Source: an uncultured Gammaproteobacteria bacterium (lineage in GTDB: Bacteria; Pseudomonadota; Gammaproteobacteria; Steroidobacterales; Rariloculaceae). Taken from it: a stretch of 64,000 nt of DNA. The position numbers and the translations under genes were made by a program. Shown here piece by piece: positions 25,644 to 63,922 of the stretch (positions are counted from its first letter, which is position 1; every line of letters starts with the position of its first letter). The DNA is taken from NCBI GenBank assembly GCA_964503125.1, contig CAZCZE010000064.1:64052-128051 (forward strand), in the 5' to 3' direction. The notes below the pieces were generated by a model. It did not search any database and was not told the origin of the DNA. It was given only the letters and a program-made list of their open reading frames with translations.

Positions 25644-25740
25644 AAACGCTGTCAAGCGTAGAGTCGTGTAGCTCTGCGCGCGATGAGTTACCTGTGCTGC
25701 GGCACGCACCGCAGCAGGCCGCGGCGTGTCCAGGGGAATA

Positions 25741-26016: not shown

Positions 26017-26038
26017 GAGGCGCGAGTCTACTCCGTTT

Positions 26039-26800: not shown

Positions 26801-26810
26801 CTTCCCTCCG

Positions 26811-27194
26811 CTATTCGTCGTCGATCAGCACTGTGCCTTGGCCGTCAACGATCTTGAGAATGTCCATCATCGGCGCGCCGTTGCGCGCGGGATGGCCCGT
26901 CATCATGATGCTGTCGCCAGGCGTCAGGATCGACTTGTGCCACTTCACTGCACGCGCGTCGCGCGCGAGGCGATTCGGGCTCGTAAGCTCGCCCCCCCAC
27001 TTCGTCTCTTTGCCGTCGTCGCCTTTCACGACGATGTAGACGAGGACGTGCGGATTCACGAACTGAAAATCCGTGACCGTCCCCGCAACGGTGACTTTGT
27101 TCACGGGCTCGAAGACACCTGCGCCGTGATGCGCCGTGGCCGGCGGCGCCACCAGCAATCCAAGTGCCACGACCACACCGACTTTTGAGCTCAT
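26811..27194 (-). CDS. DUF6152-like small secreted protein
   Basis: ATG at 27194 follows GGAGGA. Signal then ATAHHGAGVFEP...VTVAGTVTDFQFVNPHVLV, the HH...NPH pattern I recall for DUF6152. 10 nt upstream of paralog A. Confidence 0.8.
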   Translation of the reverse strand: MSSKVGVVVALGLLVAPPATAHHGAGVFEPVNKVTVAGTVTDFQFVNPHVLVYIVVKGDDGKETKWGGELTSPNRLARDARAVKWHKSILTPGDSIMMTGHPARNGAPMMDILKIVDGQGTVLIDDE

Positions 27195-29473: not shown

Positions 29474-30073
29474 TGGCGCCTACGGAGGTGCTGCCGATGG
29501 CGATCCGAATGCTGTCCTTGACGTTGGCTTGGGCCGCGCGTCGGCTTGAAGCAGCGCTTCACGCCGCGCGGGTGCAGGGGCCGCGCATCGTCATCGAGCT
29601 GCCCAACTCGGAGAACCACGTGCACACGATCACGCGCGACCCCGCGAACGATCATGGTGAAGCGTGGCTCGGTTTGACGTATCGCGAGACCGTGACGGCG
29701 GCCGAGCGCTCGGCCGCAGCGCGGCGTACAGCCGAGGAGGCGCACTCATGCCGGCGACTGCCGACTCGTTTCTACGTGCTATCCGCCGAAATCAGGTTTG
29801 CGCCGATCCACTTCGCCTGCGCTGCTTCGTCGACCTCTCCGGCTGCTAGCGCCAGAATCGTTCGGATCGCATCGATCCGGTCGGCACGTGTCCGAGCGCG
29901 GCGCGGGCCTCATGATGCAAGCAGCTCCGACCGAGCGCCTAGAAGATCGCCGTGAGATCGCCGAGGCCCGCAGACAGCGGTAGCTTCGAAAGAGTTCGAT
30001 GTCCTGACGACAACGCTCTACCAGGCGCGGTCAGCCGGTCCACTTCGAGGATGGCGGGGGTGTAAACCTCCGT

Positions 30074-30829
30074 TCACGTCGATGACAGAACGACTTGGCC
30101 CGTGGAAAAGGGCATCAGGCGATCGGTTTCTTTCCGGACCACCGCGTAACACTCGCAACTGAGCTTCTCGATCACGGCTCGGTCCAGCACCGTGATCCGA
30201 CCTCGCGTATACGTGATACCGCCTTGCTTCTGCAAACTGCCGGCGGCTTCCGTGACGCCTTCGCGGCGCACACCAAGCATGTTCGCCATGAGTTCCTGGG
30301 TCATAAATAGCTGGTCTCCCGTCACACGATCCAGGCAAAGCAGCAGCCAACGGCACAGCTGCTGTTCAACCGAGTGGTGCCGGTTGCAGACCGCAGTCTG
30401 GGTCATCTGCGTGATCAACGCCTGCATGTAGCGCAGCAGCAGGATCTGCATGCCGCTCTGGCGATGGAACTCCTTCTTGAACAGATCTGCGGCCAGACGG
30501 TACCCGTGACCAGCGCTCTGCACCATCGCCTGACTGGGAGTGCTGTCGCCGCCCATGAGCAACGCCATGCCGACGAAACCTTCGTTTCCCACCACCGAGA
30601 CTTCCGCCGACGCTCCGTTTTCCATCACATACAACAGCGACACGATCGAGTCGATGGGAAAATAGACGTACCGCATTGCATCGCCGGATTCGTACAAAAC
30701 CTTGCCATATGGCAGATCGATCAGTTCGAGGTTGGGGAACAGACGGCTTTGCACTTCGGCCGGCAGCGCCGCCAGAAGATGATTTTGCTGGGGTTTGTGC
30801 TGCTCAGCCATCTCGTAACGGTCCTTCAA
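30074..30829 (-). CDS. Crp/Fnr family transcriptional regulator
   Basis: 251 aa; the start may instead be MAEQHK at 30811. cNMP-binding-like beta-roll (YVYFPIDSIVSLLYVMENGASAEVSVVGNEGFVG) and C-terminal HTH (TQELMANMLGVRREGVTEAAGSLQKQGGI). Visibly lower GC than its surroundings. Confidence 0.9.
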   Translation of the reverse strand: MKDRYEMAEQHKPQQNHLLAALPAEVQSRLFPNLELIDLPYGKVLYESGDAMRYVYFPIDSIVSLLYVMENGASAEVSVVGNEGFVGMALLMGGDSTPSQAMVQSAGHGYRLAADLFKKEFHRQSGMQILLLRYMQALITQMTQTAVCNRHHSVEQQLCRWLLLCLDRVTGDQLFMTQELMANMLGVRREGVTEAAGSLQKQGGITYTRGRITVLDRAVIEKLSCECYAVVRKETDRLMPFSTGQVVLSST

Positions 30830-30837
30830 CAGCCCGC

Positions 30838-31032
30838 GAAAAAATCACGGTCTCGTTTGATTTCGGCTTGACGCTGCGTGGAAAGGGCGTGCGCTCCCCC
30901 ACTCTCACGTCGTCAGCGACGCATTCGAAGATCCAGCGCGCCGTGCTCCCGCCAGGTCTTGCCCATCTTTCCTGAGGCGCGACGATAAGCTTCCAGAGTC
31001 TTCCTGGGCACGGGCACGATGTATCCAACGGT
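30838..31032 (-). pseudogene. frameshifted, truncated DUF1428-like gene remnant
   Basis: One minus-strand frame reads ...GYIVPVPRKTLEAYRRASGKMGKTWREHGALDLRMRR*. A second frame continues ...ECVADDVRVGERTPFPRSVKPKSNETVIFS.... Joined at about 30925..30930 they resemble the DUF1428 pattern (DGFV.PVP...Y...A..A..vW.EhGAL...EC.gDDV..G..T.F.rAVkak..EtVVFS). There is no start codon at the expected place, and the 3' end abuts the Crp gene. Confidence 0.5.
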
Positions 31033-31338
31033 ACTCGCGCTCGGTCGGCTTGATCTGTGCGGAAGGACACCTAGCGGCGCCAGGTCGAGATCTCGACCAT
31101 TGGCTGATCAGTAGTGAGACGCGGCTGCGGCAGCATGGAATCCGTGCTCGAGCCGTCCACACTTCAGATACCCTTCGAATTCTTCCCGATCGACGCTCGC
31201 CCCCCTCCTCGACGCTCCGCGTCAGGGCGCCGCGGCGAACGACGTCGAGCAAGAACTCGCTGCCTCGCCGTTGGGGTCGAATCGCTCGCGGATGCGCTCC
31301 TTGGCGCACGAAGCGGCCACTCCTTTAATATGTGAGGT

Positions 31339-32286
31339 GTGAGCTCGAAAACACTCGATCGCCGCCGACTCCTCGCCGCCGCCCTTGGAGCGGGCGCGGC
31401 CGCCGCGGTGGGCGCGGCTTGGCGGCGCGCCACGGACGCGCAGGCGGCCGCCGCAACGTTCGCGGAGACGCCACTGCGCGGGGGCATGACCGTGATCACG
31501 GGCGCCGGCAGCAACGTCGTCGTGCTGCGCACCGCAACGAGCGCCGCGCTCGTCGACAGCGGCCCACCCGAGCACGCGGCCGAGATCAAGAAGTTCGTGG
31601 GCGCGTTACCCGTCGAGCTCCTGTTCAACACGCACTGGCATCCCCTGCACACGGGCGGCAACGAGACGCTGCGCGGACCCGATACGACGATCGTCGCCCA
31701 CGAGCTCACGCGGCTCTGGATGAGCACCGAGTACTACGTCGACTGGGAAGACCGTACCTATTCGCCCCGCGCGGCCGCCGCGCTGCCGACGAAGACGTTC
31801 TACGCCTCGGATCCGCAGCCGATCGCGGCGCACAGCGGCGACGAGGAGATCGAATACGCGCATTTGCCCGAGGCGCACACCGACGGCGACATCTACGTCT
31901 GGTTCAAGCGGAGTAACGTGCTCGCCGCAGGCGGCACGGTGACGGCCGGGGCCTATCCTGTGCCGGACCATGCCACGGGCGGCTGGATCGGCGGGCTTGC
32001 GGCCGCGACCGAGAGGCTGCTCGCCATCGCCGATGCCGACACACTCATCGTGCCTGCGGCGGGGCCCGTGCAACGGCGCGCACATCTCGAGAAGCAGCTC
32101 GCGATGCTGGCCGAAATGCGCGACCGCATCGAGGCCCACATGCGCAAAGGCCACAGCGTCGCCGAAATGCTCGCCGCGAACGTGACCGACGGATTCGACG
32201 CCTATTGGGGAGCGGACCGCGACCGGTTCGTCGCCAACGTGTACGAAGGGCTGTGGTGGGCCGGGAGGCTGCGTGACTCGCTTTGA
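31339..32286 (+). CDS. Tat-exported MBL-fold protein (motif HWHPLH), paralog of 9377..10285
   Basis: 315 aa. Tat-type signal LDRRRLLAAALGAGAAAAVGAA. FNTHWHPLHTGGN at 31633..31650 and EAHTDGDIYVWF. Confidence 0.85.
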   Translation: MSSKTLDRRRLLAAALGAGAAAAVGAAWRRATDAQAAAATFAETPLRGGMTVITGAGSNVVVLRTATSAALVDSGPPEHAAEIKKFVGALPVELLFNTHWHPLHTGGNETLRGPDTTIVAHELTRLWMSTEYYVDWEDRTYSPRAAAALPTKTFYASDPQPIAAHSGDEEIEYAHLPEAHTDGDIYVWFKRSNVLAAGGTVTAGAYPVPDHATGGWIGGLAAATERLLAIADADTLIVPAAGPVQRRAHLEKQLAMLAEMRDRIEAHMRKGHSVAEMLAANVTDGFDAYWGADRDRFVANVYEGLWWAGRLRDSL

Positions 32287-40851: not shown

Positions 40852-43647
40852 ATGCGTACTCAATGTCTACGCCTGGCTGCGCTTTCCGCGGCCGTCATCG
40901 GCTCACTACCGTTTTGCGCATCGGCGCAGCTCGAAGAGATCATCGTCACGGCGACTCGCCGCGAGACCGATTTGCAGAGCACGCCGCTGTCGATTCAGGC
41001 CTTCACGGCCGAGCAGCTCGAGCTCGGCGGCATCACGAACGGCCGCGATCTCGGCATCATGGTGCCTAACGTAACACTCAATCCCGGGACGGGCGGCGCC
41101 CAAGCCGACTTCCACGTTCGCGGCTTGCCCGGCGTGGGCTTGTACGTGGACGGCGTCTGGCAGGATGGCTTCGGCTTTCAGCAGATGAACTTCTCGGAGA
41201 TGGAGCGCGTCGAGGTGTTGCGCGGTCCGCAGGGCACGCTATTCGGGCGTAACACCAATGGCGGTGCGGTCAACATGACGACCAAGAAGCCGGGCGACGA
41301 GTTCGGCGCTCGCGTCAGACTCGACGTCGGCGACTTCGATCGGCGCGATGCGTCGATCGCCGTCGACTTGCCGCTCACCGACACGCTGAAGACGAAGTTC
41401 ATGGGCGCGACGGCCCGCAACGACGGGTTCCTGGAAAGCTTGACTACGCCGTGGGACTTCGGCTCGCAAGACGACACGATCCTGCGCGCCGACCTGCTCT
41501 GGGAGCCCACCGATACGTTCTCGTTGCGCTTCACGCACAACGACGAGCAGAAACGCGGCACAGATCCGAAAATCCACCGGATGACGCGCTACGACAACTC
41601 GAAGCTCTACGCCTACGAGATCATGCTCGGGGCGTTCCAAGCAGACGCCAATCGCCGCTGCGTGCAGCTGGGCAATAACGTGTCGTATCCGGTCACGGGC
41701 GGCGGCACGTCCGCCGCCCCGCAGGGTACGCCGGCCGCCTATGTCGGCGCCTACGGTTGCAACAACGGTGTCTGGAGTGCGCCGCCCGCCAACGGTATCG
41801 GTACGCGCTACACGGGCGCGGCACCGACGGCCTTCAACCCGGCCACTCACATGACCGACTTTCCTAACAACTATGCAGCAGAGATGACGAGCCGCTACGG
41901 CAACTATGCGACTTCGCTCAATGCCACGGGTCAACCGGTCGAGCTGCTGGGGTCCACCTACACTCCCAATCCGTTGGTCCCGGATAGGGGGTTCGGCCCG
42001 CCCCAAGTCGGCCAATGGCAAACGAGGTCCGACTCGATGGAGGATGGCATCACGGCAGACCTCAAATACAGCACGATCACCGCCGACTGGGACATCAACG
42101 ACAACTTGAGCCTCCAGGCCATTCTGTCGAACTGGGAGCAGGACCAACGCCAGGTCATCGACTTCGACGGCACCGAGTTCCTCGTGACCACCGACGACAT
42201 CCCCCAGTTTCGAGAGAACCAAACGGTCGAGCTGCATTTGACGGGCTCCGCGCTGAACGATCGCATCAGCTGGCTGGCCGGCTATTATCGGCTCGACGAA
42301 GAGATCATCACGCGCTTTTACCGTTGGGGCATGTGGGAGTTCACAACACCGAACACCGGACCCGCAGACCCACCCACGAATCTTGCGTATGCCGAATACG
42401 TGCGCCAGACCGCTTTCCTGCTGAATCTGAACGGGTTCACGGGCGGTAACATGCTCCAGACGGCTCCCGCTGGGCCGCAGGGGCTCTACGGGTGGAACTT
42501 CGCTTTTATCAGCGACGATCTGCTGACCAGCTCATACGACGAGGACACGGCTTTCTTCGGCGAAGCGACCTTCAGCGTCACCGACAAGCTCGATCTAACG
42601 GTCGGCATTCGACAGAGCGATAAGGAGGGCGGTGATTTTACGTACGTCCCGGCGGATGCGTTTCGAACACCGGATCCGGCCATCCGGCCGCAGGGCAACC
42701 CGTTCGCCTACAGCAGCCGGACCGAAAGCGTCGACTCGCCCAAGCCGAAGATCGACACCTACAAGCTCTCCGCGGCGTATCAGGCGACCGACAACGCGAT
42801 GCTCTACGTGACCTATGCGGAAGGGTTCACGTCGGCTAGCGACCCCATCGTCACCATCGGTGCCGCAGCGGTGCTGTCGTCCATTCCGGCCAGCTCGAAC
42901 CCCGTGCGCGTCAGTCCGACGCAAGCGCGGATCAGCTTGCCCGTAGAAACGATCGAGAACACCGAGATCGGGCTGCGTTCCGACTGGCTCGACAATCGGC
43001 TGCGCTTCAACGCCACCTACTTCGACTCCCAGTGGGACGGCATGCGTATCCAGCTACTGCCACTCGACGCGCAGGGCAACACCCAGCCGTTCCCTTACGC
43101 CACGGGCGACGGCAAAGGCAGCGCCAGCGGTTGGGAGTTCGAGGTGATCTGGGCGGCGACCGACCGCCTGACCTTGAACGCAGGGCTCGGCCTGATCGAC
43201 ACCAACTACCAGCAGGCCGGAGTGTTCACGGGTCTTCCGGGGCAAGCCAGCGTCACAGGTAACTACCCCGGCGCCCCGTTCGCCTACGCCGCGGAAGAGA
43301 GCGGTACGTTGGGTGCGCAGTACGAGATCCCGACGTCGAACGGCGGCCGCATCCTGCTCGTGGGCAACTACGGCTATACGGGCGACTATGCACGCGACGC
43401 GGCGTATCAACGCACGCAGATCGATGCCAACGGCAATCCGATTCTCGAGCCTGCCTACGGCATCCTGAACGCGCGCTTCGTCTACGAGCCGCCTGCGCGC
43501 AACTATTCCGTCGAGATCTGGGGCAAGAACCTCCTCGACGAGCTGTACGTCAACGGCGGCTTCGACACACGCGACACGTGGGGCTACGACTTCTCGATCG
43601 TGGGCCGGTCGCGCGAGGTGGGCGTCAGCCTGAGCTTCTCGTTCTAG
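40852..43647 (+). CDS. TonB-dependent receptor
   Basis: ATG at 40852 after AAGGGGG. Signal then QLEEIIVTATRRETDLQSTPLSIQAF (TonB box/plug), RVEVLRGPQGTLFGRNTNGG, and a C-terminal ...REVGVSLSFSF ending in aromatic F. Confidence 0.95.
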   Translation: MRTQCLRLAALSAAVIGSLPFCASAQLEEIIVTATRRETDLQSTPLSIQAFTAEQLELGGITNGRDLGIMVPNVTLNPGTGGAQADFHVRGLPGVGLYVDGVWQDGFGFQQMNFSEMERVEVLRGPQGTLFGRNTNGGAVNMTTKKPGDEFGARVRLDVGDFDRRDASIAVDLPLTDTLKTKFMGATARNDGFLESLTTPWDFGSQDDTILRADLLWEPTDTFSLRFTHNDEQKRGTDPKIHRMTRYDNSKLYAYEIMLGAFQADANRRCVQLGNNVSYPVTGGGTSAAPQGTPAAYVGAYGCNNGVWSAPPANGIGTRYTGAAPTAFNPATHMTDFPNNYAAEMTSRYGNYATSLNATGQPVELLGSTYTPNPLVPDRGFGPPQVGQWQTRSDSMEDGITADLKYSTITADWDINDNLSLQAILSNWEQDQRQVIDFDGTEFLVTTDDIPQFRENQTVELHLTGSALNDRISWLAGYYRLDEEIITRFYRWGMWEFTTPNTGPADPPTNLAYAEYVRQTAFLLNLNGFTGGNMLQTAPAGPQGLYGWNFAFISDDLLTSSYDEDTAFFGEATFSVTDKLDLTVGIRQSDKEGGDFTYVPADAFRTPDPAIRPQGNPFAYSSRTESVDSPKPKIDTYKLSAAYQATDNAMLYVTYAEGFTSASDPIVTIGAAAVLSSIPASSNPVRVSPTQARISLPVETIENTEIGLRSDWLDNRLRFNATYFDSQWDGMRIQLLPLDAQGNTQPFPYATGDGKGSASGWEFEVIWAATDRLTLNAGLGLIDTNYQQAGVFTGLPGQASVTGNYPGAPFAYAAEESGTLGAQYEIPTSNGGRILLVGNYGYTGDYARDAAYQRTQIDANGNPILEPAYGILNARFVYEPPARNYSVEIWGKNLLDELYVNGGFDTRDTWGYDFSIVGRSREVGVSLSFSF

Positions 43648-44345
43648 CGGCGCCGCACGTCCGACCCGCCGCTCGTGTCGATGTCGACCGAGCTCGGCTG
43701 GCCGCTGTAGGCGATATCGCTGCCGCCGGACGCGTGCCCGGAGATCTTGTCGCGCACGGCGATCACGAGATCGGAGCCGCCGCTGCTGTTGACGTTGGCC
43801 TCGCCCGCCGTGAAACGGCCGGCGTTCACATCGCTGCCGCCCGTCGATGCCAACCGCGCCGCACGCGCCGTGCCGGTCAGGTTCACGTCCGAGCCGCCCG
43901 AGGCGTTGAGCTCCAGCGTATCGACGGCCACTTCGATCACCACGTCGCTGCCGCCGGAAACGTCGATCCGCAGCGCGTCGCCGGTGAGCGCACCCTCCGC
44001 CCTGACATCCGAGCCGCCCGAGGCCGTGAGCGCCACGAGCTTTGGCAGCGTCACGTGCACGGAGCCGGCATCCCCCCAGTGGAAGCCGAACGACCGTTCG
44101 CGGCGGATCTCGAGCTTTCCGGCGCGGACTTCGGTAATGATCTCGCTCGCATCGTCATCCGACTGCACCTCGACGACGAAACGGTCGCCCTGACGGAGCA
44201 GGAGGTCGATGCCACCGCCGACTGCGACGGCTTCGAACCCCGAGAGGTCGCGCGTCTCGGTGTCTTGCGCGGCCGCGGGCAGGGACACCCACAGCGATGA
44301 AACAAGGACGAGTCCGGCGGCTGTCGCCCGATCGTGAGCCTGCAT
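43644..44345 (-). CDS. head GIN domain (DUF2807) protein, secreted
   Basis: ATG at 44345 after AAGGAG, with a signal peptide. FEAVAVGGGIDLLLRQGD..., then periodic (S/T)GGSD(V/L/I) turns, ending GGSDIAYSGQPS. Its stop overlaps the TBDR stop (CTAG). Confidence 0.85.
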   Translation of the reverse strand: MQAHDRATAAGLVLVSSLWVSLPAAAQDTETRDLSGFEAVAVGGGIDLLLRQGDRFVVEVQSDDDASEIITEVRAGKLEIRRERSFGFHWGDAGSVHVTLPKLVALTASGGSDVRAEGALTGDALRIDVSGGSDVVIEVAVDTLELNASGGSDVNLTGTARAARLASTGGSDVNAGRFTAGEANVNSSGGSDLVIAVRDKISGHASGGSDIAYSGQPSSVDIDTSGGSDVRRR

Positions 44346-54628: not shown

Positions 54629-54678
54629 TGGTGGAGCAGAAGGGGATCGAACCCTCGACCTCCGCATTGCGAATTCGG
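54629..54678 (-). tRNA. 3' fragment (about 50 nt) of a tRNA-Ala-like gene, or a tmRNA 3' end; att-site remnant, not a functional tRNA
   Basis: The minus strand reads CCGAA-TTCGCAA-TGCGG-AGGTC-GAGGG-TTCGATC-CCCTT-CTGCTCC-A-CCA. This gives an anticodon-arm-like element (loop TTCGCAA, anticodon CGC, one stem mismatch), variable loop, T-arm and a 3' acceptor strand with T70 (compatible with G3:U70), then ACCA. Sequence 5' of it has no D-arm or matching 5' acceptor strand. Confidence 0.6.
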
Positions 54679-54792
54679 TGGGTCGTGTTTGAAGGACTTT
54701 GAAGCTGCTTGCGAGTGTTTGATAACGCGTTGTTTCCATTGCGATACCGTTTGAAGCCCGCCCTACACTCTGCTACCGAGTTTGAAATGAAC

Positions 54793-54811
54793 TGTCTACA
54801 TGGCGTCTACA
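54793..54811 (+). repeat. left copy of a 19-nt imperfect direct repeat (TGTCTACATGGCGTCTACA)
   Basis: 18/19 identical to 63965..63983. It contains two GTCTACA heptamers and spans the integrase-remnant ATG (54800). Confidence 0.5.
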
Positions 54812-55500
54812 TGGCAGCAGGATGCGAGGGTCAAGCTGACGAAGACCGCCGTCGATCAGCTCGCGCCAACGTCCCCTCGTCAACGCCTCATTCGCGACAG
54901 CGAGCTTAGAGGGTTCGCGCTCCGAATTACACCGGCCGGCGTTAAGGCGTTCGTCCTAGAGAAACGCATCCAAGGCCGCGTCCGTCGCGTGACGATCGGC
55001 CGATACGGCGAGCTCACGGTGGCGCAGGCACGCAACCGCGCCCAACAGCTGCTTGGCGAGATCGCCCTCGGCGAGGATCCGGTTACCAACCGAAAGCGCG
55101 CCCGAGCAACGGCATTACCCTCGAAGAAGCGTACGGGGACTTTCTTGAGGCTCGGCAGTTACGGCCCACCACGCGCGCCAATTACGACCGCGCTATCCAC
55201 GGAGGACTAGAGGACTGGAAGCGCCGGCCGTTGCATACGATTACCGGAAACATGGTGATTCAGCGCCATCAATCGCTCGCTAAAACCCGCGGCGAGCAAG
55301 GCGCGAACAACTACATGCGAGTCCTCAGGGCGATTTACGCCTTTGCGATCGATCGCTACGACGACGGCACCGGGCGACCGGTGATCTCGCATAACCTCGG
55401 GCGGGCTTCGGCCCGCCCGCTCTATCTGAAGCCGCGAACCGCCGCACCACGTGATGCGGCGGCGTATCCAACAGACCGGCTTTTCGAAGTTATGAGACAC
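54800..55500 (+). pseudogene. P4-type tyrosine integrase remnant (frameshifted, catalytic domain missing)
   Basis: The frame from 54800 reads ARVKLTKTAVDQL...LIRDSELRGFALRITPAGVKAFVLEKRIQGRVRRVTIGRYGELTVAQARNRAQQLLGEIALGEDP, a DUF4102/Arm-type N-terminus. At about 55105..55112 homology moves to another frame: GITLEEAYGDFLEARQLRPTTRANYDRAI...ITGNMVIQRHQSLAKTRGEQGANNYMRVLRAIYAFAI, a SAM-like core-binding domain. It then decays, and no R...HxxR...Y catalytic region follows. Confidence 0.75.
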
Positions 55501-55541
55501 TCTTGCGAGCCGCCCAGGTCAGCCGACACCGTTCGAGCGAA

Positions 55542-58500
55542 ATGATGCAAGAGACGACTTCCGGTGGCGGGCACGCAGTAAACGCGGGAATAGAGTATCA
55601 GAGCCGCGTCGCCGCGTGGTTCGCTGTTCACGTACTCGCCGAAGCAGCCGTCCAGGGACGCTTCGATCTGCCGCACCCAGCAGTCCTGACTGATCTCTGG
55701 GTCGAGCCCGACGCCGTTGTCGACGACGTCATCGCCAGAACGTCACAAGACGGATTTCTTTTCGTTCAAGTAAAGAAAAACCTGCAGCTCTCGTCGAAAC
55801 CGACGTCGCGGTTCGGACAAGCGCTTGATCAACTGCTTCGACAGTACGTGTCCTTGGCAGAACACGCGCCTGCGGGTCGCTCCTGGGAGCGTCCCTTGGA
55901 GCCTGCGCGAGATCGATTGTTGTTGGTTGTCTCCGGGGAAAGCTCGCGAGTAGTCCGAGAGGCGCTACCTAAACTGCTGACCAGAATTCGAAACCGGTCA
56001 GCCCGTACGCTCCCCAGCGAACTAGCGTCAAGAAGCGAAGAACAGAAGGCCTTGGGGATCTTGCGCGAACTCTTCGAACACGCGTGGGTGAAATACCGAT
56101 CCGGAGCGCCGAGCGATGAGCAGTTGCTAAAATTCTTAGAGCTATGCCACGTCGTCACGGTGAATGCCGAAGCTGGCGGCCCCGACGAGCAGCTGGCACT
56201 TCAGCTTCTGCAAACAACGGTTCTTAGCGAACCAGCCATGGCCGCCAACGCTTGGTCCACCCTCGTGGCCGCCTGCACTTCGATGGCAGCGACTGGCGAA
56301 CACATCACGCCACATGCACTTCGATCTCTGCTGGCGGCGCGGAAGATAACTCCAAAAACAGCGTTGAGTATCGAAGGCGATGTGGCTCGCCTTCGAACCT
56401 ACTCGGAAAGGCTGCTGGGCGATCTAGCTGAAGCATCTGAAATCAAACTCGGGCGCGACGTCATCAGCATTCGCAGAAAAGTACTTGATGGACTATCAGC
56501 GGCAGTTAGTGACGGGCCGCTGATCGTAATTGGCGAGCCCGGCTCTGGAAAGTCTGGCGTGCTGCACCAACTGGCGCTTGCCCATAGCGCAGGTGGGGCG
56601 GACGTCGTCTTTCTCGCGGTCGATAGGCTTATTGCACAAACCGAGGCTGAGCTTGCGCGCAGCCTCGGTATTTTGGCTCCTCTCGAAGACGTACTTCTTG
56701 GCTGGGCCGGTGCGACACCAGGGCTTCTTGTAGTCGATGCCCTTGATGCTGCGCGGTCCGACACTACTGCCGCGGTGCTACGCCGGCTGCTAGAGCGAAT
56801 TCTACGGAAGACATCTCGCTGGAGAATCGTCGCCTCGATGAGGAAATTTGATCTTCGTTACAGCCCAGAGATGAACTCTCTGTTTCGCGGCGAACCGCCT
56901 GGCGAGTTCGCAGACCCTCTCTTTTCAAATCTCCGGCACGTAAATGTAGGGCCACTGTCAGACGACGAGCTAGCGCCACTCCGAGAAAGCGTACCACAGC
57001 TATTCTCGTTTCTTAACGCGAGTTCGCCAGCGCTCCAGAAACTGCTACGCGTGCCGTTCAACCTAAGACTACTCGCCGAACTGTTGGGGCACTCAGTTCC
57101 CACCAGCGATCTGAGTTACGTTCGCGCTCAGGTTCAGCTCCTCGACCGTTACTGGGAGCACCGTGTAATCGCGACACCTTCGGGTTCGGATGAGCGCGAA
57201 GCGGTGCTGCAAGCCGTTACGCGGAAGATGGTCCACGAAAGATCGTTGCGTGTTAGCCGCGTTGAAATCTGGAACCAACCTTCGCAGATTCCCCTTGCAG
57301 CTCTTACCTCACTTCTGCAGCGCAATGTGCTCGCCGAGTGGCAGAGCTCTGACATAAATGCGCCGGACCGGTACTGGATTGTCTTCGCTCACCACGTCCT
57401 TTTTGACTATGCCGCTTCGCGGCTGATTCTTCGCCAGGGACGATCCATTCAGGATCTGATTGCCCTCCTTCAGGCGCAACGCGATCTTATCGTCGTTCTT
57501 CGCCCTAGTCTGACGATGCTTTTTCAGCACCTCTGGGACCGTGCGCAATCACGGGACCTTTTCTGGGAGTTCGCGCTCGCGTTTGCCGAAACAGACAGTA
57601 TTGCGGAGCTGGCGAAGCTGATAGCGCCGCATGTCGCATCCCAGGAAGGGGCCGACCTCGCCGATTTCCGCGGCCTGCTCGACCGGTTTGATAGCGACCG
57701 AATTGAAGACACACGAGCCGCCACAGAAGTCGTGCGTCACCTTTTTGGCGCGGTCATCGCCTGGCAGAAGCCTGGCGACGCTCCTCACAAGTTAGAGCTC
57801 TGGGCAGACGTACTTCAAGCAGTTAGCGCGTATTTCAGTTGCGCGGACCTCCTCTATTCATCGCGTCCCTTGATGTACTGGCTAACGGAAAACGCAGCGT
57901 CCCTATCGACGGGCGCTTGCTTGGCGATCAACGTCGCCGCCCGCCGAATGCTCGAAGCGACCTGGAAGCTCCCCAGATACGACGAAAGCCTAGTCATCGC
58001 CGGCCTTTCCGCCACGTGCAAGACCATGGCTGCTGACCCGAGCTCATCGATTGTCTTGCTAAAGAACCTTATTGAGCCAGAACGTTTGCGCGAGTTTGGT
58101 TACGCGGAACTGCCTTGGTTGGCGGACCAAATCCCAGCCATTGCCAAGGCAGACGCTACTTTCGCAGCGCGAATATATGAAGCGGCCTTCTCGTATGAGG
58201 ACACATCTGACGAGAAGACGGCACTCGGTCGTAGCCAAATTCTTCCGCTCACTTCGAATCGGCGGCAAGACTATGCAGGCGCGTGGTATCGCCTGGAAAC
58301 CGCGTTTCCACGTTTCCTCGAGATCGATTTTAGGACTGCTGTTTCCGCAGCAATCATGGCGGTCTCAGAGCATGTGCGCCGAAATCATCCAGCAGAATCG
58401 GCGACGCATGAGGTTCACTATCGCGGCCGTCGCGGGGTTTTGATCGAGGACTATAGCTACGTATGGAACAGCGAATCGACGCGCCACCACGAAGCGGCAA

Positions 58501-60533
58501 TCAAACTTCTATCCCACATAGACGACTTCTTGACGAAGCACCAAGACGACGAAGGGTCGAGCAATCACTTTCACGACGTCGTCGACCTATTCGTTGAAAG
58601 AGCTCAAACGGCAGCGCTTTGGGCGTGGCTGCTCAAAGCCGCCGCGACTCATCCGCTCACTCTCGGTGTGTACGCAGCGCCGCTTTTGATCAATCGACCG
58701 ATGCTGGAGGCAAATGACACGACCGTCCGGGCCGGCGAACTGCTGGGCGCTGTGTTCAAACACTTACAAGTACAAACTCGTGAGCAAATAGAGACTGCAA
58801 TCCTTAGCATTTCCGACGCGGGCGCATCTGAGGACAGTGATCGCTCTAGGCGCACACGCGATCGGCTTTTGGGCTGCCTGCCAAGAGACAACCTGTCGCT
58901 TGAGAGAACAAAGGAGATTCTTGGAGCGCTTGACCGTGCGCAAGCTGTTCCGGGGAATGCCCCTCTATTTGCGATTCACACGTATTCCAAGACCTATTCC
59001 GACGAAGATTTCCTGCGCGACCAAGGCGTCGATGTAGAACAGCCTACTCACAAAGAGTTGCTCGAAGCGGAGCGCAGGGTAAAGCAATTCCGGGACGAGT
59101 TCTCAAACGGCGAAGTCACCGAGAGCGATTTGGCCCGCCACTTTCTGACTCTCCGCGGTCTTCGCGAAACCATCGACAGATCAGCGGCAGCCCGGCCTGA
59201 AGCGATCGCACACGCTGTTGGCGTGTTAGCAGAGGCTTGCGAGACAGCTGCGATTCGTGGTCAAACGCTAAGGGCCTCTGAAGCGAGCTTGTTCGTTCGT
59301 ACGAACCTGCTTGAAGCGTCAACTCACGATACACCAGAGTACGACGCGGATTCGGACGAAAGGTTTAATGAATCCCAAAGCTGGGGTTCGCCTTCTCCGC
59401 GCGTTCACGCCGCCGCCGGCCTGACATCGCTCGCACGATTCCCCGAGCTCACCGACGCGCGCCTTCTGGACGCCGTCGATCAATTGTCGCGCGACCCCGT
59501 TGCAGTGGTCCGCCACCAGGTAGCGATTCGCCTAACCTGTCTTTATGCAACGGCCAATGAATTGATGTGGCGACTCTTGGAATACGTGGCCGAGACTGAA
59601 GCAAACCGGGGAGTGATCGACGCCGCGGTCTGCCATCCAATACCCGCGTTATGCGGACGCCATGCGGATCGAGCAATAGCCATGCTAAACCGGGTGCTCG
59701 CCCGTGTGCAGACAGGGCCGGGCGCCGATGACGTAAGGGAACACGCGTTCTCGATACTGCTCGACGTATACGTGTGGTTTGGCCGCGAAGAATGCGGAAA
59801 GCTGGTCTTCGGCCTCTTATCCGAGGTCCAGAACAATGGAGAAACCATTTCCTCCCTGGTGGCAAGGCATCGGGAGACTCTGGTCCATGGCAGCGTGACC
59901 GCGCCAGGCGACGCCGTAGAACACGCGCAGAGGAAACGAGCTATCGGCTTCATTACGGCAGCACTTCAGGCAAGCGTAAGAGAGATAGAGCGCGTAATCG
60001 CTCTCCGCGAAGAACGCACACGCCAAGGACAGCCCATTCATTCGGACGACCGAGAGTCGGCTGGATTTCGCCTCGCTAATACGATCGCGCAAGAGATCTA
60101 TTTCGCGTCGGGTGCATACCGAGAGCGAAACAAGCAAACAAAGGACGCTTCAGACGGACCAACCGCTGCGCAGGCGCGCTTCTATAAAGAAGCGCAGCCT
60201 CTATTCGAGCAGCTAGTCGCGCTGAAACTGGTTCCGATAGCTCAACACGTTATCGAGACGTTGGAATTCTTTGTTCCACTGCATCCCCAGGCAGTCTTTC
60301 GCCTCATTCACAGCGCCGTCACTTCTGCACAAGCCGGCGGCTATCAATTTGAATCTCTAGGAACGCAACTCGTCGTTCGCGTCGTCGAGAGATACCTGGC
60401 GGAATACCGCGATTTATTTGCTGACGACGCAAACATGCGTTCCGCACTTGTGGACATTCTGAACGTCTTCGTCCGCGCCGGTTGGCCGGAGGCACGGCAG
60501 CTTACATACAGGTTGTCTGAAATCTATTCATGA
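55542..60533 (+). CDS. giant nuclease-like / P-loop STAND-type NTPase / helical-repeat protein (Avs/NLR-like candidate)
   Basis: ATG ATG at 55542; the ORF track starts at TTG 55503. N-terminal motif: GIEYQSRVAAWFAVHVL...VEPDAVVDDVIARTSQDGFLFVQVKK. Walker A VIGEPGSGKSGV at 56532..56555 and Walker B GLLVVDALDAAR at 56724..56747. More than 1000 aa of helical HEAT/ARM-like sequence follows. The coding call is firm; function is inferred. Confidence 0.85.
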   Translation: MMQETTSGGGHAVNAGIEYQSRVAAWFAVHVLAEAAVQGRFDLPHPAVLTDLWVEPDAVVDDVIARTSQDGFLFVQVKKNLQLSSKPTSRFGQALDQLLRQYVSLAEHAPAGRSWERPLEPARDRLLLVVSGESSRVVREALPKLLTRIRNRSARTLPSELASRSEEQKALGILRELFEHAWVKYRSGAPSDEQLLKFLELCHVVTVNAEAGGPDEQLALQLLQTTVLSEPAMAANAWSTLVAACTSMAATGEHITPHALRSLLAARKITPKTALSIEGDVARLRTYSERLLGDLAEASEIKLGRDVISIRRKVLDGLSAAVSDGPLIVIGEPGSGKSGVLHQLALAHSAGGADVVFLAVDRLIAQTEAELARSLGILAPLEDVLLGWAGATPGLLVVDALDAARSDTTAAVLRRLLERILRKTSRWRIVASMRKFDLRYSPEMNSLFRGEPPGEFADPLFSNLRHVNVGPLSDDELAPLRESVPQLFSFLNASSPALQKLLRVPFNLRLLAELLGHSVPTSDLSYVRAQVQLLDRYWEHRVIATPSGSDEREAVLQAVTRKMVHERSLRVSRVEIWNQPSQIPLAALTSLLQRNVLAEWQSSDINAPDRYWIVFAHHVLFDYAASRLILRQGRSIQDLIALLQAQRDLIVVLRPSLTMLFQHLWDRAQSRDLFWEFALAFAETDSIAELAKLIAPHVASQEGADLADFRGLLDRFDSDRIEDTRAATEVVRHLFGAVIAWQKPGDAPHKLELWADVLQAVSAYFSCADLLYSSRPLMYWLTENAASLSTGACLAINVAARRMLEATWKLPRYDESLVIAGLSATCKTMAADPSSSIVLLKNLIEPERLREFGYAELPWLADQIPAIAKADATFAARIYEAAFSYEDTSDEKTALGRSQILPLTSNRRQDYAGAWYRLETAFPRFLEIDFRTAVSAAIMAVSEHVRRNHPAESATHEVHYRGRRGVLIEDYSYVWNSESTRHHEAAIKLLSHIDDFLTKHQDDEGSSNHFHDVVDLFVERAQTAALWAWLLKAAATHPLTLGVYAAPLLINRPMLEANDTTVRAGELLGAVFKHLQVQTREQIETAILSISDAGASEDSDRSRRTRDRLLGCLPRDNLSLERTKEILGALDRAQAVPGNAPLFAIHTYSKTYSDEDFLRDQGVDVEQPTHKELLEAERRVKQFRDEFSNGEVTESDLARHFLTLRGLRETIDRSAAARPEAIAHAVGVLAEACETAAIRGQTLRASEASLFVRTNLLEASTHDTPEYDADSDERFNESQSWGSPSPRVHAAAGLTSLARFPELTDARLLDAVDQLSRDPVAVVRHQVAIRLTCLYATANELMWRLLEYVAETEANRGVIDAAVCHPIPALCGRHADRAIAMLNRVLARVQTGPGADDVREHAFSILLDVYVWFGREECGKLVFGLLSEVQNNGETISSLVARHRETLVHGSVTAPGDAVEHAQRKRAIGFITAALQASVREIERVIALREERTRQGQPIHSDDRESAGFRLANTIAQEIYFASGAYRERNKQTKDASDGPTAAQARFYKEAQPLFEQLVALKLVPIAQHVIETLEFFVPLHPQAVFRLIHSAVTSAQAGGYQFESLGTQLVVRVVERYLAEYRDLFADDANMRSALVDILNVFVRAGWPEARQLTYRLSEIYS

Positions 60534-62014
60534 CTTCTGACAATGCTGACGACTTTCTAACCAGATTGCTTGCCACGCGCTCTGATTACCGAGCGCACGC
60601 TAGCCGTTTGATAGGCCATTTTCGCCAGGTTCTCGAAGGGCGCGGGCTTCCTGCAGAAGTAGCGGGCCAGATGTCAGCAAAACTGCTGGAGGATCATGCA
60701 CGACAATACATGGTCGATGCCCTGCTGGATGCTCTGAACTGGTCCATCGGCTTCACGTCCCTCACACCAAATACTCTTCCAGAGGTTCCGATCCTCTCGC
60801 AGGAACGCAGTCGAACGCGCTACTTGGATTACTTAGGTTTTGATCGTATCCACCTCAAACCGAGTCTGGTTGTGGAGACCAAACGACCTGACCTCGCCCT
60901 GCCATCGAAACGCTTCGATGATCCTCAAGCTCAGCAATCGCCGGGTGCGTTGATTTCCGCTGGCTTATCAGGAGTGGATGTAGGTAGCGAGTGGAATGAA
61001 TGGCTAGCGACGGTTCGCGATTACGTCCGTTCAGTGAAAGCGGCTTCTGGATCTTGTCCGCAGAGAGCCTTGGTCACAAACGGTGAATGGCTGGTTGTTT
61101 TCGCCGATCCAGAGGACGCATTCTCGTCACCCAACGCAGCGAACATCGACCGAATACACGTCTTTCGGACTTTGGACGAAGTGGCAGCGCGTTATTCGGA
61201 CGTCTACGCCCTCCTTGAGTACCGATGCGTCACTGGAGAGATCGGCGGAGTTGCCCCGGGTGCTATCAGTGCGCTCGTCGACCGAGAGAGAATCAGTGGA
61301 ATCCTGCATGGCGCTCTCCTCAATTACAACGAAGTCGGCATGGGCCATGGTAGAACGCCCGCGATCTACATTACCCCGGCACTATTCCTTCGGCTCGATG
61401 GCGGCAAGTACCTCCGTGTCGAATCGCAGAGAAGCTTCCCGGTCCCTCACGAATACGCAGGAATCGGCGCTCACCTTAGTGAGGTTTCGGCAGCGGCAGC
61501 AAAACTTAAAGCGGACGTGGAACTTCACGTTGGTCGAGCGCTGGAGGTTATCCCAGCAACAAGCCACGACGGGGCAGCCCTAGACGCAAGCTTGCCTTTC
61601 GTTTCAGTACTCGATCAGCGAAACCCGGGCATGACACTTATGCAGATTGTGACCGGCGATAGACATCACTACTTCAGCGCTGAACCAACCGTGAATAACT
61701 GTGCGCATCACACCTGGCAAAATAGCCATGCGGCTGGATGCGGCGAACCCATCGTCCTTGTTCGAGCGGTCTCTCCAAAGTCGTTTTTTACCAATGACGA
61801 AGTACACCACTGTTGTCACCGTGATGTGCGCGCCCTGAAGGCTGCCCACAATAATGCGCACGCGGCCAATGCACCCGTCTCCCCAGACAATCGAGCGTTC
61901 TGCAAAATTTGGCGGTTTGAGCAGCGGCTGTGCTGTCGCACTTGTTCGTTCGAACTGGTGTGTGGGGCTGTAGAGACGTTCACGCTGCCATGCTCGACAG
62001 CGGCGACCAGCTGA
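60530..62014 (+). CDS. HsdR-N-like PD-(D/E)xK nuclease-fold protein with a Cys/His-rich C-terminal domain
   Basis: ATGA overlap with the upstream stop. RYLDYLGFD...SLVVETKRPD...RALVTNGEWLVVF is the type I restriction HsdR N-terminal-like core. The last ~105 aa contain 10 Cys plus many His (CAHHTW, HAAGC, HHCCH, FCK, CCRTCSFELVC). Confidence 0.8.
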   Translation: MTSDNADDFLTRLLATRSDYRAHASRLIGHFRQVLEGRGLPAEVAGQMSAKLLEDHARQYMVDALLDALNWSIGFTSLTPNTLPEVPILSQERSRTRYLDYLGFDRIHLKPSLVVETKRPDLALPSKRFDDPQAQQSPGALISAGLSGVDVGSEWNEWLATVRDYVRSVKAASGSCPQRALVTNGEWLVVFADPEDAFSSPNAANIDRIHVFRTLDEVAARYSDVYALLEYRCVTGEIGGVAPGAISALVDRERISGILHGALLNYNEVGMGHGRTPAIYITPALFLRLDGGKYLRVESQRSFPVPHEYAGIGAHLSEVSAAAAKLKADVELHVGRALEVIPATSHDGAALDASLPFVSVLDQRNPGMTLMQIVTGDRHHYFSAEPTVNNCAHHTWQNSHAAGCGEPIVLVRAVSPKSFFTNDEVHHCCHRDVRALKAAHNNAHAANAPVSPDNRAFCKIWRFEQRLCCRTCSFELVCGAVETFTLPCSTAATS

Positions 62015-62168: not shown

Positions 62169-62900
62169 TTGGAAGGGCTCGCCCTAGTACTCCTACTCTT
62201 CGTTCTATTTCTTTTCCTTATTGGGGCTTACCTCCGGTCACCTACAGTCATAGGTGCGCGAGGCGAACGTCGAGTCAATTCAATTCTTGATCGCCAGCTG
62301 CCATCGGAAGAATACAAGGTCTTTCACGACGTCACGCTTCACACGTCTCAGGGACCGACCCAGATCGATCACATCGTCGTATCCAAGTACGGCGTATTTG
62401 TGATCGAGACCAAAAACTATACGGGGTGGATTTTCGGTGATGCCAACTCTAAGCAATGGATGCAAACTATCTATGGCTATAGGAGCCGTTTTCAGAATCC
62501 GCTGCGCCAGAATTTCAAGCATACGAAGGCAGTAGAGTCGTTACAGTCAATCAGCCCACGATACGTCCATTCTGTCGTCACCTTTGTTGGCGACGCCGAG
62601 TTCAAGACCGATCTACCGGATAACGTCACTCGCCTGTCGGATCTGTGCCCTTATATCCTTTCATATCGAGATCCACTGTTAAGCACAGACCGCGTCGGGG
62701 CGATTGCGATGATGCTGAGAGATCACAAAGAGGGCCGAGAGTTTCGGCGGCCCCCTACACTGACTGTTCTTCCGGATGAACCTCTTTGCCCGAAGTGCGG
62801 CGAGCGTATGGTCTTGCGGAAGGCGCGAAAAGGAAAAAGCATTGGAAGCGAGTTCTGGGGCTGCCCTCGATTCCCTCGATGCAGGGGTGTCCGCTTTTAG
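62169..62900 (+). CDS. NERD domain protein with a C-terminal topoisomerase-type C4 zinc finger
   Basis: 243 aa from a TTG start, with an N-terminal TM helix. RGERRVNSILDRQL...YKVFHDVTL...QIDHIVVSKYGVFVIETKNYTGWIFG...QNPLRQNFKH is the NERD domain. CPKCGERMVLRKARKGKSIGSEFWGCPRFPRCRG is a zf-C4_Topoisom-like ribbon. Confidence 0.9.
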   Translation: MEGLALVLLLFVLFLFLIGAYLRSPTVIGARGERRVNSILDRQLPSEEYKVFHDVTLHTSQGPTQIDHIVVSKYGVFVIETKNYTGWIFGDANSKQWMQTIYGYRSRFQNPLRQNFKHTKAVESLQSISPRYVHSVVTFVGDAEFKTDLPDNVTRLSDLCPYILSYRDPLLSTDRVGAIAMMLRDHKEGREFRRPPTLTVLPDEPLCPKCGERMVLRKARKGKSIGSEFWGCPRFPRCRGVRF

Positions 62901-62977: not shown

Positions 62978-63922
62978 TTAGGGTGCTTCCCTTCGGACCT
63001 GGCGGCCATCAAGATTAAGCACGCGACAAATATGCGTAATTGCAGCCCGCGTGAAGCTGTCAGCGTCGTTCAAAGACGTGCCATCGCCAAGATTCACGCG
63101 CTCACCGCTCCGTTCGAACGCACACAGAAATAAACTGTGGGTGAGGCCTCTTTCCAGAGTCACGAACATGCGCGGTTTCATCTCGCGGCGGTCAAGCACG
63201 GTCATCACGTAAAGATAGGCGATCGGCGTAGTATGTCCGCCGGTGAGTCGTTCCCCGAGCGGCCGTGCGTCTTTGACCAATAGAAAAATGTAGTCAGCAA
63301 CCGAGTGGATAGCTATAGGGGGCCGTTGCGTCACGTCCGGCATGGATGGCGACAAAGTGAAGGAGTCTCCCGGCCGCGGACTACTCTTCGGCGGACTTGT
63401 CCTGTCGCGCTCACTGGAAAAATGTTCTCTGTGAGCGTTGGAATTCAGCATCCGGTCATAGAGATTCGGAATCTCATCGACCTTTCGGAACGGCCGCTCC
63501 AATGCGCGACGCCAGGGGGGCTTGTTGTTCGCGTCGGAGATGCGGTACTTAAAGACGTCGAGAAAATGCGTCTGGCAATAGTCGAAAAGTCCGGGATCCT
63601 CCCGGCGGACATCGCGGACACTGCGCACAAGCTCGGCCGCTGACTCAAATTCCGCGATAACGCGTCCCATCCCCTCCATGAATCCTTGGTAGAGGCTCAT
63701 GACATCGCGTCCCGTGAGCTTCAAAGCGTCTGCTGGATTGCTGAGATTGGCACCGACAAGGTGGAAGCGATAGTAGACGTTCGCAAGCGTGTTGCGGACT
63801 GCTGGGGCGAGATCGTCGAGAGGGCCTAGATCGCGCGCCAACGCATTAAAGGCTTTCTGCAGGGCGACAACATCCACGCTCATGCGGCAACTAGTTTGCA
63901 GTGCCCGCGAACAGTGCAACAA
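62978..63922 (-). CDS. hypothetical protein (island cargo, no recognisable family)
   Basis: 314-aa ORF from TTG 63922, with an alternative ATG at 63883 (MSVDVVALQ...). Composition matches the island. No motifs recognised. Confidence 0.65.
   Translation of the reverse strand: MLHCSRALQTSCRMSVDVVALQKAFNALARDLGPLDDLAPAVRNTLANVYYRFHLVGANLSNPADALKLTGRDVMSLYQGFMEGMGRVIAEFESAAELVRSVRDVRREDPGLFDYCQTHFLDVFKYRISDANNKPPWRRALERPFRKVDEIPNLYDRMLNSNAHREHFSSERDRTSPPKSSPRPGDSFTLSPSMPDVTQRPPIAIHSVADYIFLLVKDARPLGERLTGGHTTPIAYLYVMTVLDRREMKPRMFVTLERGLTHSLFLCAFERSGERVNLGDGTSLNDADSFTRAAITHICRVLNLDGRQVRREAP

Follow-up and report, generated by a model that had tools for sequence, protein, structure and literature searches.

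A predicted Cap4-type nuclease–NTPase and its cysteine-rich partner as a divergent member of the candidate defence system PDC-M54

What does the pair of overlapping genes at positions 55542–62014 of a 64,000-nucleotide stretch of contig CAZCZE010000064.1, from an uncultured gammaproteobacterium of the family Rariloculaceae, encode, and how far do its two products depend on each other? We call this whole stretch the window, the two genes A and B, and their products proteins A and B. A preliminary description, made from the letters alone, had proposed a candidate anti-phage system in which a giant nuclease–NTPase–repeat protein is obligately coupled to a second nuclease-like protein, in a layout that it could not match to a named defence system.

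55542..60533, + strand: gene A, 1663 amino acids (aa), predicted to join a Cap4-like nuclease to a STAND-like NTPase and a long helical C-terminus; PADLOC PDC-M54A
60530..62014, + strand: gene B, 494 aa, the partner protein; PADLOC PDC-M54B
60530..60533, + strand: ATGA stop/start overlap, in which the ATG of B overlaps the TGA of A; a site permitting translational coupling

The two genes form a real, intact pair. In a six-frame listing of open reading frames (ORFs), the open frame of gene A spans 55503..60533 (+; 1676 codons), and alignment of homologues placed its start at the ATG at 55542 or at that at 55545, giving a protein of 1663 or 1662 aa. We recovered both ORFs and their ATGA overlap at the positions first reported, together with the motifs GIEYQSRVAAW...VVDDV...FVQVKK, GEPGSGKS (56532..56555) and LLVVDALD (56724..56747) in protein A, the motifs RYLDYLGFD, VVETKRP and VTNGEW in protein B, and 10 Cys in the C-terminal part of protein B (aa 391–488, within the last 105 residues). 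Chance does not account for these motifs: in each of the two families, the residues named vary little or not at all.

Searches with PADLOC hidden Markov models (HMMs) gave the pair a name. The PDC-M54A model (PDLC04700) matched A with E = 0 and 1436.6 bits (aa 8–1662 against model positions 2–1656 of 1657), and the PDC-M54B model (PDLC04703) matched B with E = 8.3e-113 (aa 1–490 against positions 1–485 of 496). The layout can thus be matched over the full length of both proteins to a catalogued system, and its first reading as an uncharacterised candidate holds, as PDC-M54 is catalogued as untested. According to the catalogue, PDC-M54 is an untested ‘guilt-by-embedding’ candidate, corresponds to cassette CAS_00172 (FAM_02606>>FAM_00589), and is listed with the number 54, which we read as the count of RefSeq v209 instances; PDC candidates derive from cassettes embedded in BREX, DISARM or type I restriction-modification (RM) systems (Payne et al. 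2024, bioRxiv 10.1101/2024.01.29.577857). A study testing several PDCs left PDC-M54 out, and an NCBIfam search returned no match for A or B. As judged from the profile matches, A and B are a divergent member of this already catalogued, uncharacterised candidate, with closest relatives at 38–40% identity (38% for protein A). To the catalogue entry we add a structure-based identity for the effector, the finding that B depends on A but not the reverse, a near-universal 4-nucleotide (4-nt) overlap, effector swaps in the A family and an eight-cysteine signature in B.

Protein A: nuclease, NTPase and long C-terminal region

55566..56507, + strand: A aa 9–322, Cap4/DUF4297-type PD-(D/E)xK nuclease domain, predicted effector (AlphaFold model, Foldseek, residue conservation)
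55722..55727, + strand: D61-D62, predicted nuclease residues
55767..55775, + strand: Q76-x-K78, predicted nuclease residues
56511..56951, + strand: A aa 324–470, P-loop NTPase core (sequence, residue conservation, weak Pfam matches)
56532..56555, + strand: Walker A GEPGSGKS, aa 331–338 (sequence)
56724..56747, + strand: Walker B LLVVDALD, aa 395–402 (sequence)
56979..60530, + strand: A aa ~480–1663, long C-terminal region, predicted helical-repeat sensor (weak HEAT matches)
59349..59774, + strand: HEAT-like segment, aa ~1270–1411 (borderline profile matches)

An AlphaFold model of aa 1–322 of protein A, built with 27 sequences, had a predicted local distance difference test score (pLDDT) of 88 and a predicted template modelling score (pTM) of 0.83. 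All 17 Foldseek matches of this model in the PDB at E ≤ 0.001 were LmuA, Avs3 or Cap4 chains, and these top 17 same-fold matches all had E ≤ 6.4e-4, prob 1.00 and TMq 0.41–0.46. They included Lamassu LmuA (9hr5; E 4.8e-5), the N-terminus of Avs3 (8dgc; E 8.5e-5, TMq 0.46) and CBASS Cap4 from three species (6wam/6vm6/7yia; E 1.6e-4 to 6e-4). D61, D62 and K78 were invariant in the 27 sequences, and E34, E55 and Q76 were conserved in most homologues. The Pfam model Cap4_nuclease (PF14130) matched 4 of the 27 homologues, with a best E of 0.0016; protein A of the window itself gave no PF14130 match at E ≤ 5, and a PHROGs search with the N-terminal 322 aa gave no match. On the strength of the model, we firmly assign this domain to the Cap4-type PD-(D/E)xK nuclease fold and predict that it is the effector, as the DUF4297/Cap4-type nuclease first suggested at this N-terminus would imply.

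The nuclease domain is followed by a P-loop. A STAND NTPase domain combines a Walker A motif, an hhhhDxxD Walker B motif and a sensor arginine, followed by helical and winged-helix modules. In protein A, R405, R434 and a GPLSxxEL segment come after Walker B, and G331, P333, G334, G336, K337, S338, D402, R405 and R434 were invariant in 29 sequences, with D399 nearly so. Matches to STAND models were weak among the 29 homologues (NPHP3_N in 13, nSTAND3 in 10, AAA_16 in 10 and nSTAND_NTPase5 in 3), and a profile search of A against PDB sequences found P-loop and HEAT noise alone. We read the central domain as a divergent STAND NTPase, an assignment more weakly supported than the Cap4 call; the P-loop and invariant Walker residues agree with the STAND/NACHT-like NTPase described earlier, though the STAND signatures are weak.

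About 1180 aa of protein A come after the NTPase. The length of more than 1000 aa in the preliminary description thus stands, whereas the helical-repeat nature that it gave to this region is backed just by minority or borderline matches: HEAT in 5 and HEAT_2 in 4 of the 29 homologues, and, in a profile search, borderline matches of aa ~1270–1411 to the HEAT repeats of Integrator subunit 4 and PP2A-A in the PDB (E 6.5e-4 to 0.4). By analogy with Avs proteins, this region may serve as the sensor. The order of effector, NTPase and repeat agrees with the Avs/NLR-like layout recognised at the outset.

The A family comprises more than 231 full-length homologues of strikingly constant length (~1650–1670 aa), patchily distributed across many bacterial phyla and several archaeal lineages. 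In some clades the Cap4 nuclease is replaced by another domain: by a CHAT protease with HEAT in two Solirubrobacterales-type loci (L063, 6648–12140; L076, 8708–14116), and by an alpha/beta-hydrolase (DUF676/PGAP1-like) in L023, L024, L028, L030 and P0128. The hydrolase variants occur in Paenibacillus and Alicyclobacillus, with L023, L024, L028 and L030 being Firmicutes, and these four and both CHAT variants lack B. Swapping of this kind, in which the effector changes while the NTPase and sensor stay constant, is characteristic of immune proteins of the Avs/NLR-like type (Lee et al. 2026, PMC13581612).

At a separate locus (L011), a second ORF with distant similarity to A is encoded upstream in the opposite orientation (4918–9663, −; E 1.6e-21), and a 2142-aa ORF follows A (region 14979–21404, +); this locus may hold a cluster of several giant NTPase genes.

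Protein B and its dependence on protein A

60767..61129, + strand: B aa 80–200, predicted PD-(D/E)xK nuclease core (conserved triad, modelled strand order, weak fold matches)
60827..60829, + strand: D100, triad residue
60875..60883, + strand: E116-T-K118, triad residues
B aa 183–187, + strand: TNGxW strand, part of the predicted nuclease core
61292..61531, + strand: B aa 255–334, beta-beta-beta-alpha middle module (secondary structure of the model)
61667..61993, + strand: B aa 380–488, Cys/His-rich C-terminal domain, predicted to bind metal or an iron-sulfur (Fe-S) cluster (residue conservation)

We surveyed the linkage of the two genes from both sides. The A-based survey covered 80 loci from species-representative genomes, 60 of which were scorable, having full-length A and at least 1.6 kb of downstream sequence; the B-based survey covered 79 metagenome loci and two long contigs, with 64 informative loci. 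B was present at 24 of the 80 A loci, and in 24 of 24 it lay immediately downstream on the same strand. Among the scorable loci, 18 had B, one (L010) had a B remnant and 41 had none, and B-positive and B-negative loci were interspersed over the A tree, indicating repeated loss or gain of B. The NTPase residues were retained in all 41 B-less A proteins; the N-terminus was swapped in six of these, and D61, D62 and K78 were retained in the other 35. Counted over nuclease-type A proteins, 35 of 53 lacked B and had intact active-site residues.

From the side of B, the C-terminus of A was encoded directly upstream at 63 of the 64 informative loci. A 4-nt NTGA stop/start overlap was kept at 70 of 72 A–B junctions from genomes and metagenomes, in proteins just 30–45% identical, and was also present in two divergent plasmid copies. 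Pairwise identities among A proteins and among B proteins were correlated with r = 0.97, against a maximum of 0.33 in shuffles, and B was seen solely with nuclease-type A in the sample, never with the CHAT or hydrolase variants. Thus, B is a strictly dependent, co-inherited accessory of nuclease-type A, whereas A does not require B. The obligate coupling originally proposed therefore applies to B and not to A, about two thirds of which occur without B, and the same asymmetry answers whether the gene pair is co-conserved: B is nearly always found with A, but A is often alone (41/60). The ATGA overlap, proposed from the start to permit translational coupling, has its counterpart in the NTGA sites. 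An all-against-all BLAST of neighbours in B-less loci revealed no alternative conserved partner, the recurrent neighbours of A being just clade-specific HsdM/HsdS, integrases and transposases.

These counts bear on the proposal that B is a regulator or safety factor, antitoxin- or chaperone-like, that restrains or stabilises the Cap4 nuclease and whose own nuclease motif is secondary. The strict 4-nt overlap would tie B synthesis to A, as in many toxin–antitoxin and effector–immunity pairs, and the restriction of B to nuclease-type A in the sample fits as well. However, the 35 of 53 nuclease-type A proteins with intact sites and no B indicate that A is tolerated without B; D100, E116, K118 and the eight Cys of B (see below) show strong purifying selection, for which there would be no call in a mere inhibitor; and B lies downstream of A and is large (494 aa), unlike typical antitoxins. 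We consider a regulatory B very unlikely.

Several individual loci show other states of the pair. At L010, a short B remnant (14827–15138; E 3e-7) directly follows an intact A, which is direct evidence that B can decay away while A stays. A recurrent shortened variant was present on six metagenome contigs (L135, L137, L140, L141, L142 and L148), in which the match to A ends near profile position 664 and the ORF that follows, with an overlap, matches positions 61–271 of B alone. Such a structure suggests either that an internal deletion has joined the front of A to the B nuclease core or that the lineage has decayed. Within HsdM...HsdS operons, A occurs alone at L031 (8254–16180) and A and B occur together at L003 (6754–17689), L004, L045 and L062, so that the operons of the L031 and L003 types form a natural contrast with and without B in closely related backgrounds.

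A word-indexed protein search with B, as a single sequence or as a profile, returned 7–8 matches; an exhaustive profile search went far deeper and yielded 573 cluster representatives. We counted conservation over 101 full-length relatives, which were 22–40% identical to B of the window. The predicted catalytic triad was almost fully conserved (D100, 0.99; E116, 1.00; K118, 1.00). A structure model, built from 8 sequences, had an overall pLDDT of 59.7, and its mediocre quality, with the Cys/His domain at pLDDT <35, is attributable to the shallow alignment. In this model aa 40–340 were moderately confident, nuclease-core elements were at pLDDT 70–90, and the elements were alpha42–68, beta82–89, beta96–104, beta111–117, alpha153–173 and beta179–183. 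D100 lies on the second strand (96–104) and E116-x-K118 at the end of the third (111–117) of the alpha-beta-beta-beta-alpha-beta unit, which in the model is the canonical PD-(D/E)xK layout.

Foldseek matches of the B model in the PDB were non-significant, and the best of them were to PD-(D/E)xK proteins (MGME1, E 0.025; 3ijm, E 0.083; DrdV, E 0.17). The Pfam model HSDR_N matched one of 8 B sequences (E 0.084), and a profile search of B against PDB sequences found nothing. The triad and the strand order thus agree with the HsdR-N-like nuclease proposed for B in the preliminary description, but no significant HSDR_N or fold match supports it. We also considered and rejected the possibility that the B nuclease is a paralogue of the Cap4 domain of A (hhalign probability 0.2%). 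The middle module gave repeated non-significant Foldseek matches to RAD52 in the PDB (E 0.13–0.5) and, in BFVD, to single-strand annealing proteins of the ERF/Rad52 type (best E 0.0065, prob 0.75, non-significant); it may possibly bind single-stranded DNA (ssDNA) in a Rad52/ERF-like manner, which we treat as a weak lead only.

The C-terminal domain of B carries C391, H394, H427, C428, H430, C458, C468, C469, C472, C478 and C488. Over the 101 relatives, C391, C428, C458, C468, C469, C472, C478 and C488 were each at least 96% conserved, as against 96% for H394, 94% for H380, 94% for H315, 89% for H427 and 87% for H430, and each Cys of the C469-x2-C472-x5-C478 motif was at least 97% conserved. 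All eight conserved Cys lie in aa 391–488, with no conserved Cys ahead of aa 391 in the 101 sequences, and the domain had no match in Pfam, the PDB or PHROG. The C-x2-C-x5-C spacing is that of the Fe-S ligands of Cas4, AddB, Dna2 and Exo5. In such iron-staple nucleases the fourth Cys ligand is N-terminal of the nuclease core, and the cluster staples the domain. The likeness of B to them fails this defining feature, because no conserved Cys precedes its core. From these conserved residues, we predict that B is an eight-cysteine, metal- or Fe-S-binding PD-(D/E)xK protein.

These features could instead mark B as the sensing or triggering subunit, which would use its nuclease, beta-beta-beta-alpha and metal-cluster domains to recognise phage DNA ends, ssDNA or replication intermediates and would then signal to A, the paired form thus sensing nucleic acid rather than a phage protein. 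The presence of A upstream of B at 63 of 64 informative loci, the co-divergence of B with A, the CX2CX5C spacing that resembles that of the DNA-end-binding Fe-S nucleases Cas4, AddB, Dna2 and Exo5, and the weak Rad52/ERF-like matches of the middle module in two libraries all accord with such a role. Against it, A proteins that lack B are no shorter and retain the long conserved C-terminal region, which suggests that A uses its own sensor whether B is present or not; the Rad52/ERF resemblances fall short of statistical significance and the Fe-S likeness is one of motif spacing; and a fully conserved catalytic triad suits an enzyme at least as well as a sensor. A sensing B is, in our estimate, improbable.

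A bolder idea, which we regard as unlikely but worth stating, is that B is an undescribed metal-cluster (possibly Fe-S) nuclease with a Rad52/ERF-like ssDNA-binding module that docks on the Cap4–STAND protein as part of a two-nuclease NLR complex and supplies nucleic-acid sensing or end-processing. If so, B would change what the STAND protein responds to or destroys, a translationally coupled subunit dedicated to DNA handling would for the first time be known in an Avs-type receptor, and the relatives of the pair would offer a natural plus/minus-partner series for the effect of an accessory subunit on an NLR.

Proposed mechanism and genomic setting

Our preferred interpretation, which we hold to be probable though well short of secure, is that A is a self-sufficient sensor–effector of the Avs/NLR type, that B is an accessory metal-binding nuclease made with A, and that the pair is a PDC-M54 member on a degraded island. 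Self-sufficiency of A is argued by the many relatives without B and by the other clades that swap the nuclease for a CHAT protease or an alpha/beta-hydrolase. We take Avs3, Avs4 and Avs7, as set out by Lee et al. (2026, PMC13581612), as the model for its mechanism. A would most likely stay monomeric and autoinhibited until its C-terminal helical array bound a ligand specific to infection, by analogy most likely a conserved phage protein. With autoinhibition lifted, the NACHT-like NTPase would mediate ATP-dependent oligomerisation, bringing the N-terminal Cap4-type domains together into an active nuclease for double-stranded DNA. The assembled nuclease would destroy phage and host DNA, resulting in abortive infection. 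B would probably be made by termination–reinitiation at the NTGA overlap, tying its amount to that of A, and would most likely add a second metal-dependent DNA-processing activity to the activated complex; this role is suggested by the strong selection on its triad and Cys, by its restriction to nuclease-type A and by the viability of A without it.

We examined the neighbourhoods of relatives for signs of defence. In one A clade, which includes the A-only locus L031, the locus is flanked by the HsdM and HsdS genes of a type I RM system. Genes in a random sample of 108 neighbours from 58 loci matched BrxL, class II pAgo, Shedu SduA, CapP, RmrA, a bacterial NACHT protein, ZorD, HmaB, PDC-S05, PD-Lambda-1 and HsdR, and the same sample held six tyrosine integrases, three rve transposases and Tn7 TnsD/TniQ. 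The A–B pair occurs on three plasmids. No phage record encoded a relative of A in a search with A, and no viral contig encoded a relative of B in a search with B.

This context must also be weighed against a function other than defence, whether in mobile-element competition or addiction or in DNA repair or housekeeping, with the defence islands incidental. The carriage of the pair by plasmids and by islands with integrases and transposases, the position of some loci among metabolic genes, the lack of relatives on viral contigs and in phage records, and the absence of experimental validation from the literature that we found would all be expected of such a function. Yet interchangeable effectors on an NTPase with a huge C-terminal region are characteristic of immune STANDs, relatives are embedded within type I RM operons, at least 10 different defence systems are represented among the recurrent neighbours, and a patchy, horizontally driven distribution with repeated loss of B misfits housekeeping. 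We see little chance that the pair is something other than an anti-phage system.

On a 178-kb metagenome contig (L082), a PLD/SNF2-helicase gene and an MmeI/Eco57I-type methyltransferase gene lie downstream of A–B (16970–21506), and a similar PLD-SNF2 helicase lies upstream of A in L073, L008 and L044.

In the window, the pair lies in a region where GC content drops from ~0.66–0.70 to 0.55–0.59, from ~55 kb to the window end, and whose other features are as follows.

54629..54763, − strand: tmRNA/tRNA-like 3' fragment (T-arm, acceptor, CCA), a probable att remnant (sequence, weak Rfam match)
54800..55545, + strand: decayed P4-type integrase (arm-binding domain, frameshift, short remnant)
62169..62900, + strand: NERD and Top1-type C4 zinc-ribbon protein (Pfam)
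62978..63922, − strand: 314-aa ORF in the low-GC island, with no match in Pfam, PADLOC, NCBIfam or PHROGs

The tmRNA/tRNA-like fragment occurs once in the window; its Rfam tmRNA match (E 0.0057, 12.6 bits) is far under the gathering score, and ARAGORN found no intact tRNA or tmRNA anywhere in the 64-kb window. The integrase begins with an Arm-DNA-binding ORF (54800..55210; Pfam Arm-DNA-bind_3, E 3.5e-18) and continues as an out-of-frame remnant (55231..55545) that ends at the A start codon, with no catalytic domain after it. The small ORF at 55231..55545, whose TGA overlaps the ATG of A, was considered as a coupled upstream gene and rejected, being this out-of-frame continuation. We take the region 54629–55545 for the probable left edge of a genomic island that has lost its mobility and whose other end lies past the window, and the low GC content and these remnants at the left edge agree with the low-GC island noted initially. 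Promoter and terminator scans around the A–B operon were uninformative.

The NERD neighbour named in the preliminary description is present at 62169..62900 but is not a conserved partner of the pair: we rejected it as a third component, as it is not a recurrent neighbour of A–B elsewhere. It also matches the N-terminal NERD part of the PglW and MAD6 models and phrog_21557, of unknown function (E 1e-27). Further dips in GC content to 0.61–0.64, against the 0.66–0.70 background, at ~24000–27000, ~29000–32000 and ~41000–44000 may mark other acquired segments of the window.

A number of observations count against a self-sufficient Avs/NLR-type A with an accessory nuclease B. For A, the Pfam NACHT match of the window protein (24.2 bits, E 3.2e-5) falls under the 26.7-bit cutoff, none of the PADLOC Avs models (Avs1–5) matches at E ≤ 0.1, and both STAND membership and the repeat sensor are sequence-based calls. 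For B, the fold assignment is weak (best Foldseek E 0.025, model pLDDT 59.7), the correlation of A and B identities could stem from shared inheritance alone, and we infer both its physical contact with A and its effector role. The copy on plasmid pRLG202 lies among ordinary metabolic genes and not in a defence island, and our literature search found no test of PDC-M54. Finally, the pair of the window sits on a decayed island and may not be expressed; the scan found no promoter-like site upstream of A.

Should the pair prove to protect against phages, one of 145 untested PADLOC candidates would be validated, and a widespread family of Cap4–STAND receptors would be added that spans bacterial and archaeal phyla and whose sensor looks HEAT-like rather than TPR-like. 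As roughly one in three nuclease-type receptors is accompanied by a second predicted nuclease, strictly dependent on it and with eight invariant cysteines, the role of an accessory in an NLR-like receptor becomes testable. Both genes are now annotated as ‘hypothetical’ or ‘ATP-binding protein’, for which PDC-M54A (Cap4-nuclease STAND-like NTPase) and PDC-M54B (PD-(D/E)xK-motif, Cys-rich partner) are usable labels.

Comparison with known systems

Protein B is closest in motif to the RecB-family Fe-S nucleases (Cas4, AddB, Dna2 and Exo5) and to HsdR N-terminal domains, with which it shares a D...ExK triad in the canonical strand order and, with the former, the C-x2-C-x5-C spacing; MGME1, its best fold match (E 0.025), belongs to the RecB-family nuclease clade. 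It differs from these proteins in having no significant sequence or fold match to them and no helicase or Cas partner, and its eight conserved Cys lie at least 190 aa C-terminal of the core instead of flanking it.

The N-terminus of A has the same predicted nuclease fold as Cap4 (CBASS, DUF4297) and LmuA (Lamassu), with sequence identity of 13–15%. It combines an invariant acidic pair with a QxK lysine, K78, which is numerically close to K74 of EcCap4, the residue mutated in 7yia. Cap4 is activated via SAVED and LmuA via the SMC-like LmuB/C, whereas the nuclease of A is fused to an NTPase.

In its predicted overall architecture A resembles Avs3 and Avs7 (PDB 8dgc; Lee et al. 2026, PMC13581612), which likewise join a Cap4-type nuclease, a STAND-like NTPase and a very long helical C-terminus, and its family swaps effector domains between clades as the Avs families do. 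However, A falls outside the PADLOC Avs HMMs (E ≤ 0.1) and its profile match to Avs4 is just E 0.028, its repeats look HEAT-like and not TPR-like, and a third of its members carry a dedicated downstream nuclease partner.

The closest correspondence is with PDC-M54 itself: A and B match its HMMs end to end and are adjacent, on the same strand and in the order A then B, and one clade of relatives lies inside a type I RM operon, the kind of embedding that led to the discovery of the candidate. The window proteins differ from the catalogued family in being 38–40% identical to their closest relatives, and the catalogue entry, in the text available, names neither domains nor a mechanism nor a test. 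Our description goes beyond that text of Payne et al. 2024 in the one-sided dependence of B on A, the stop/start overlap kept across the family, the Cap4-type fold predicted for the effector and the Cys motif of B.

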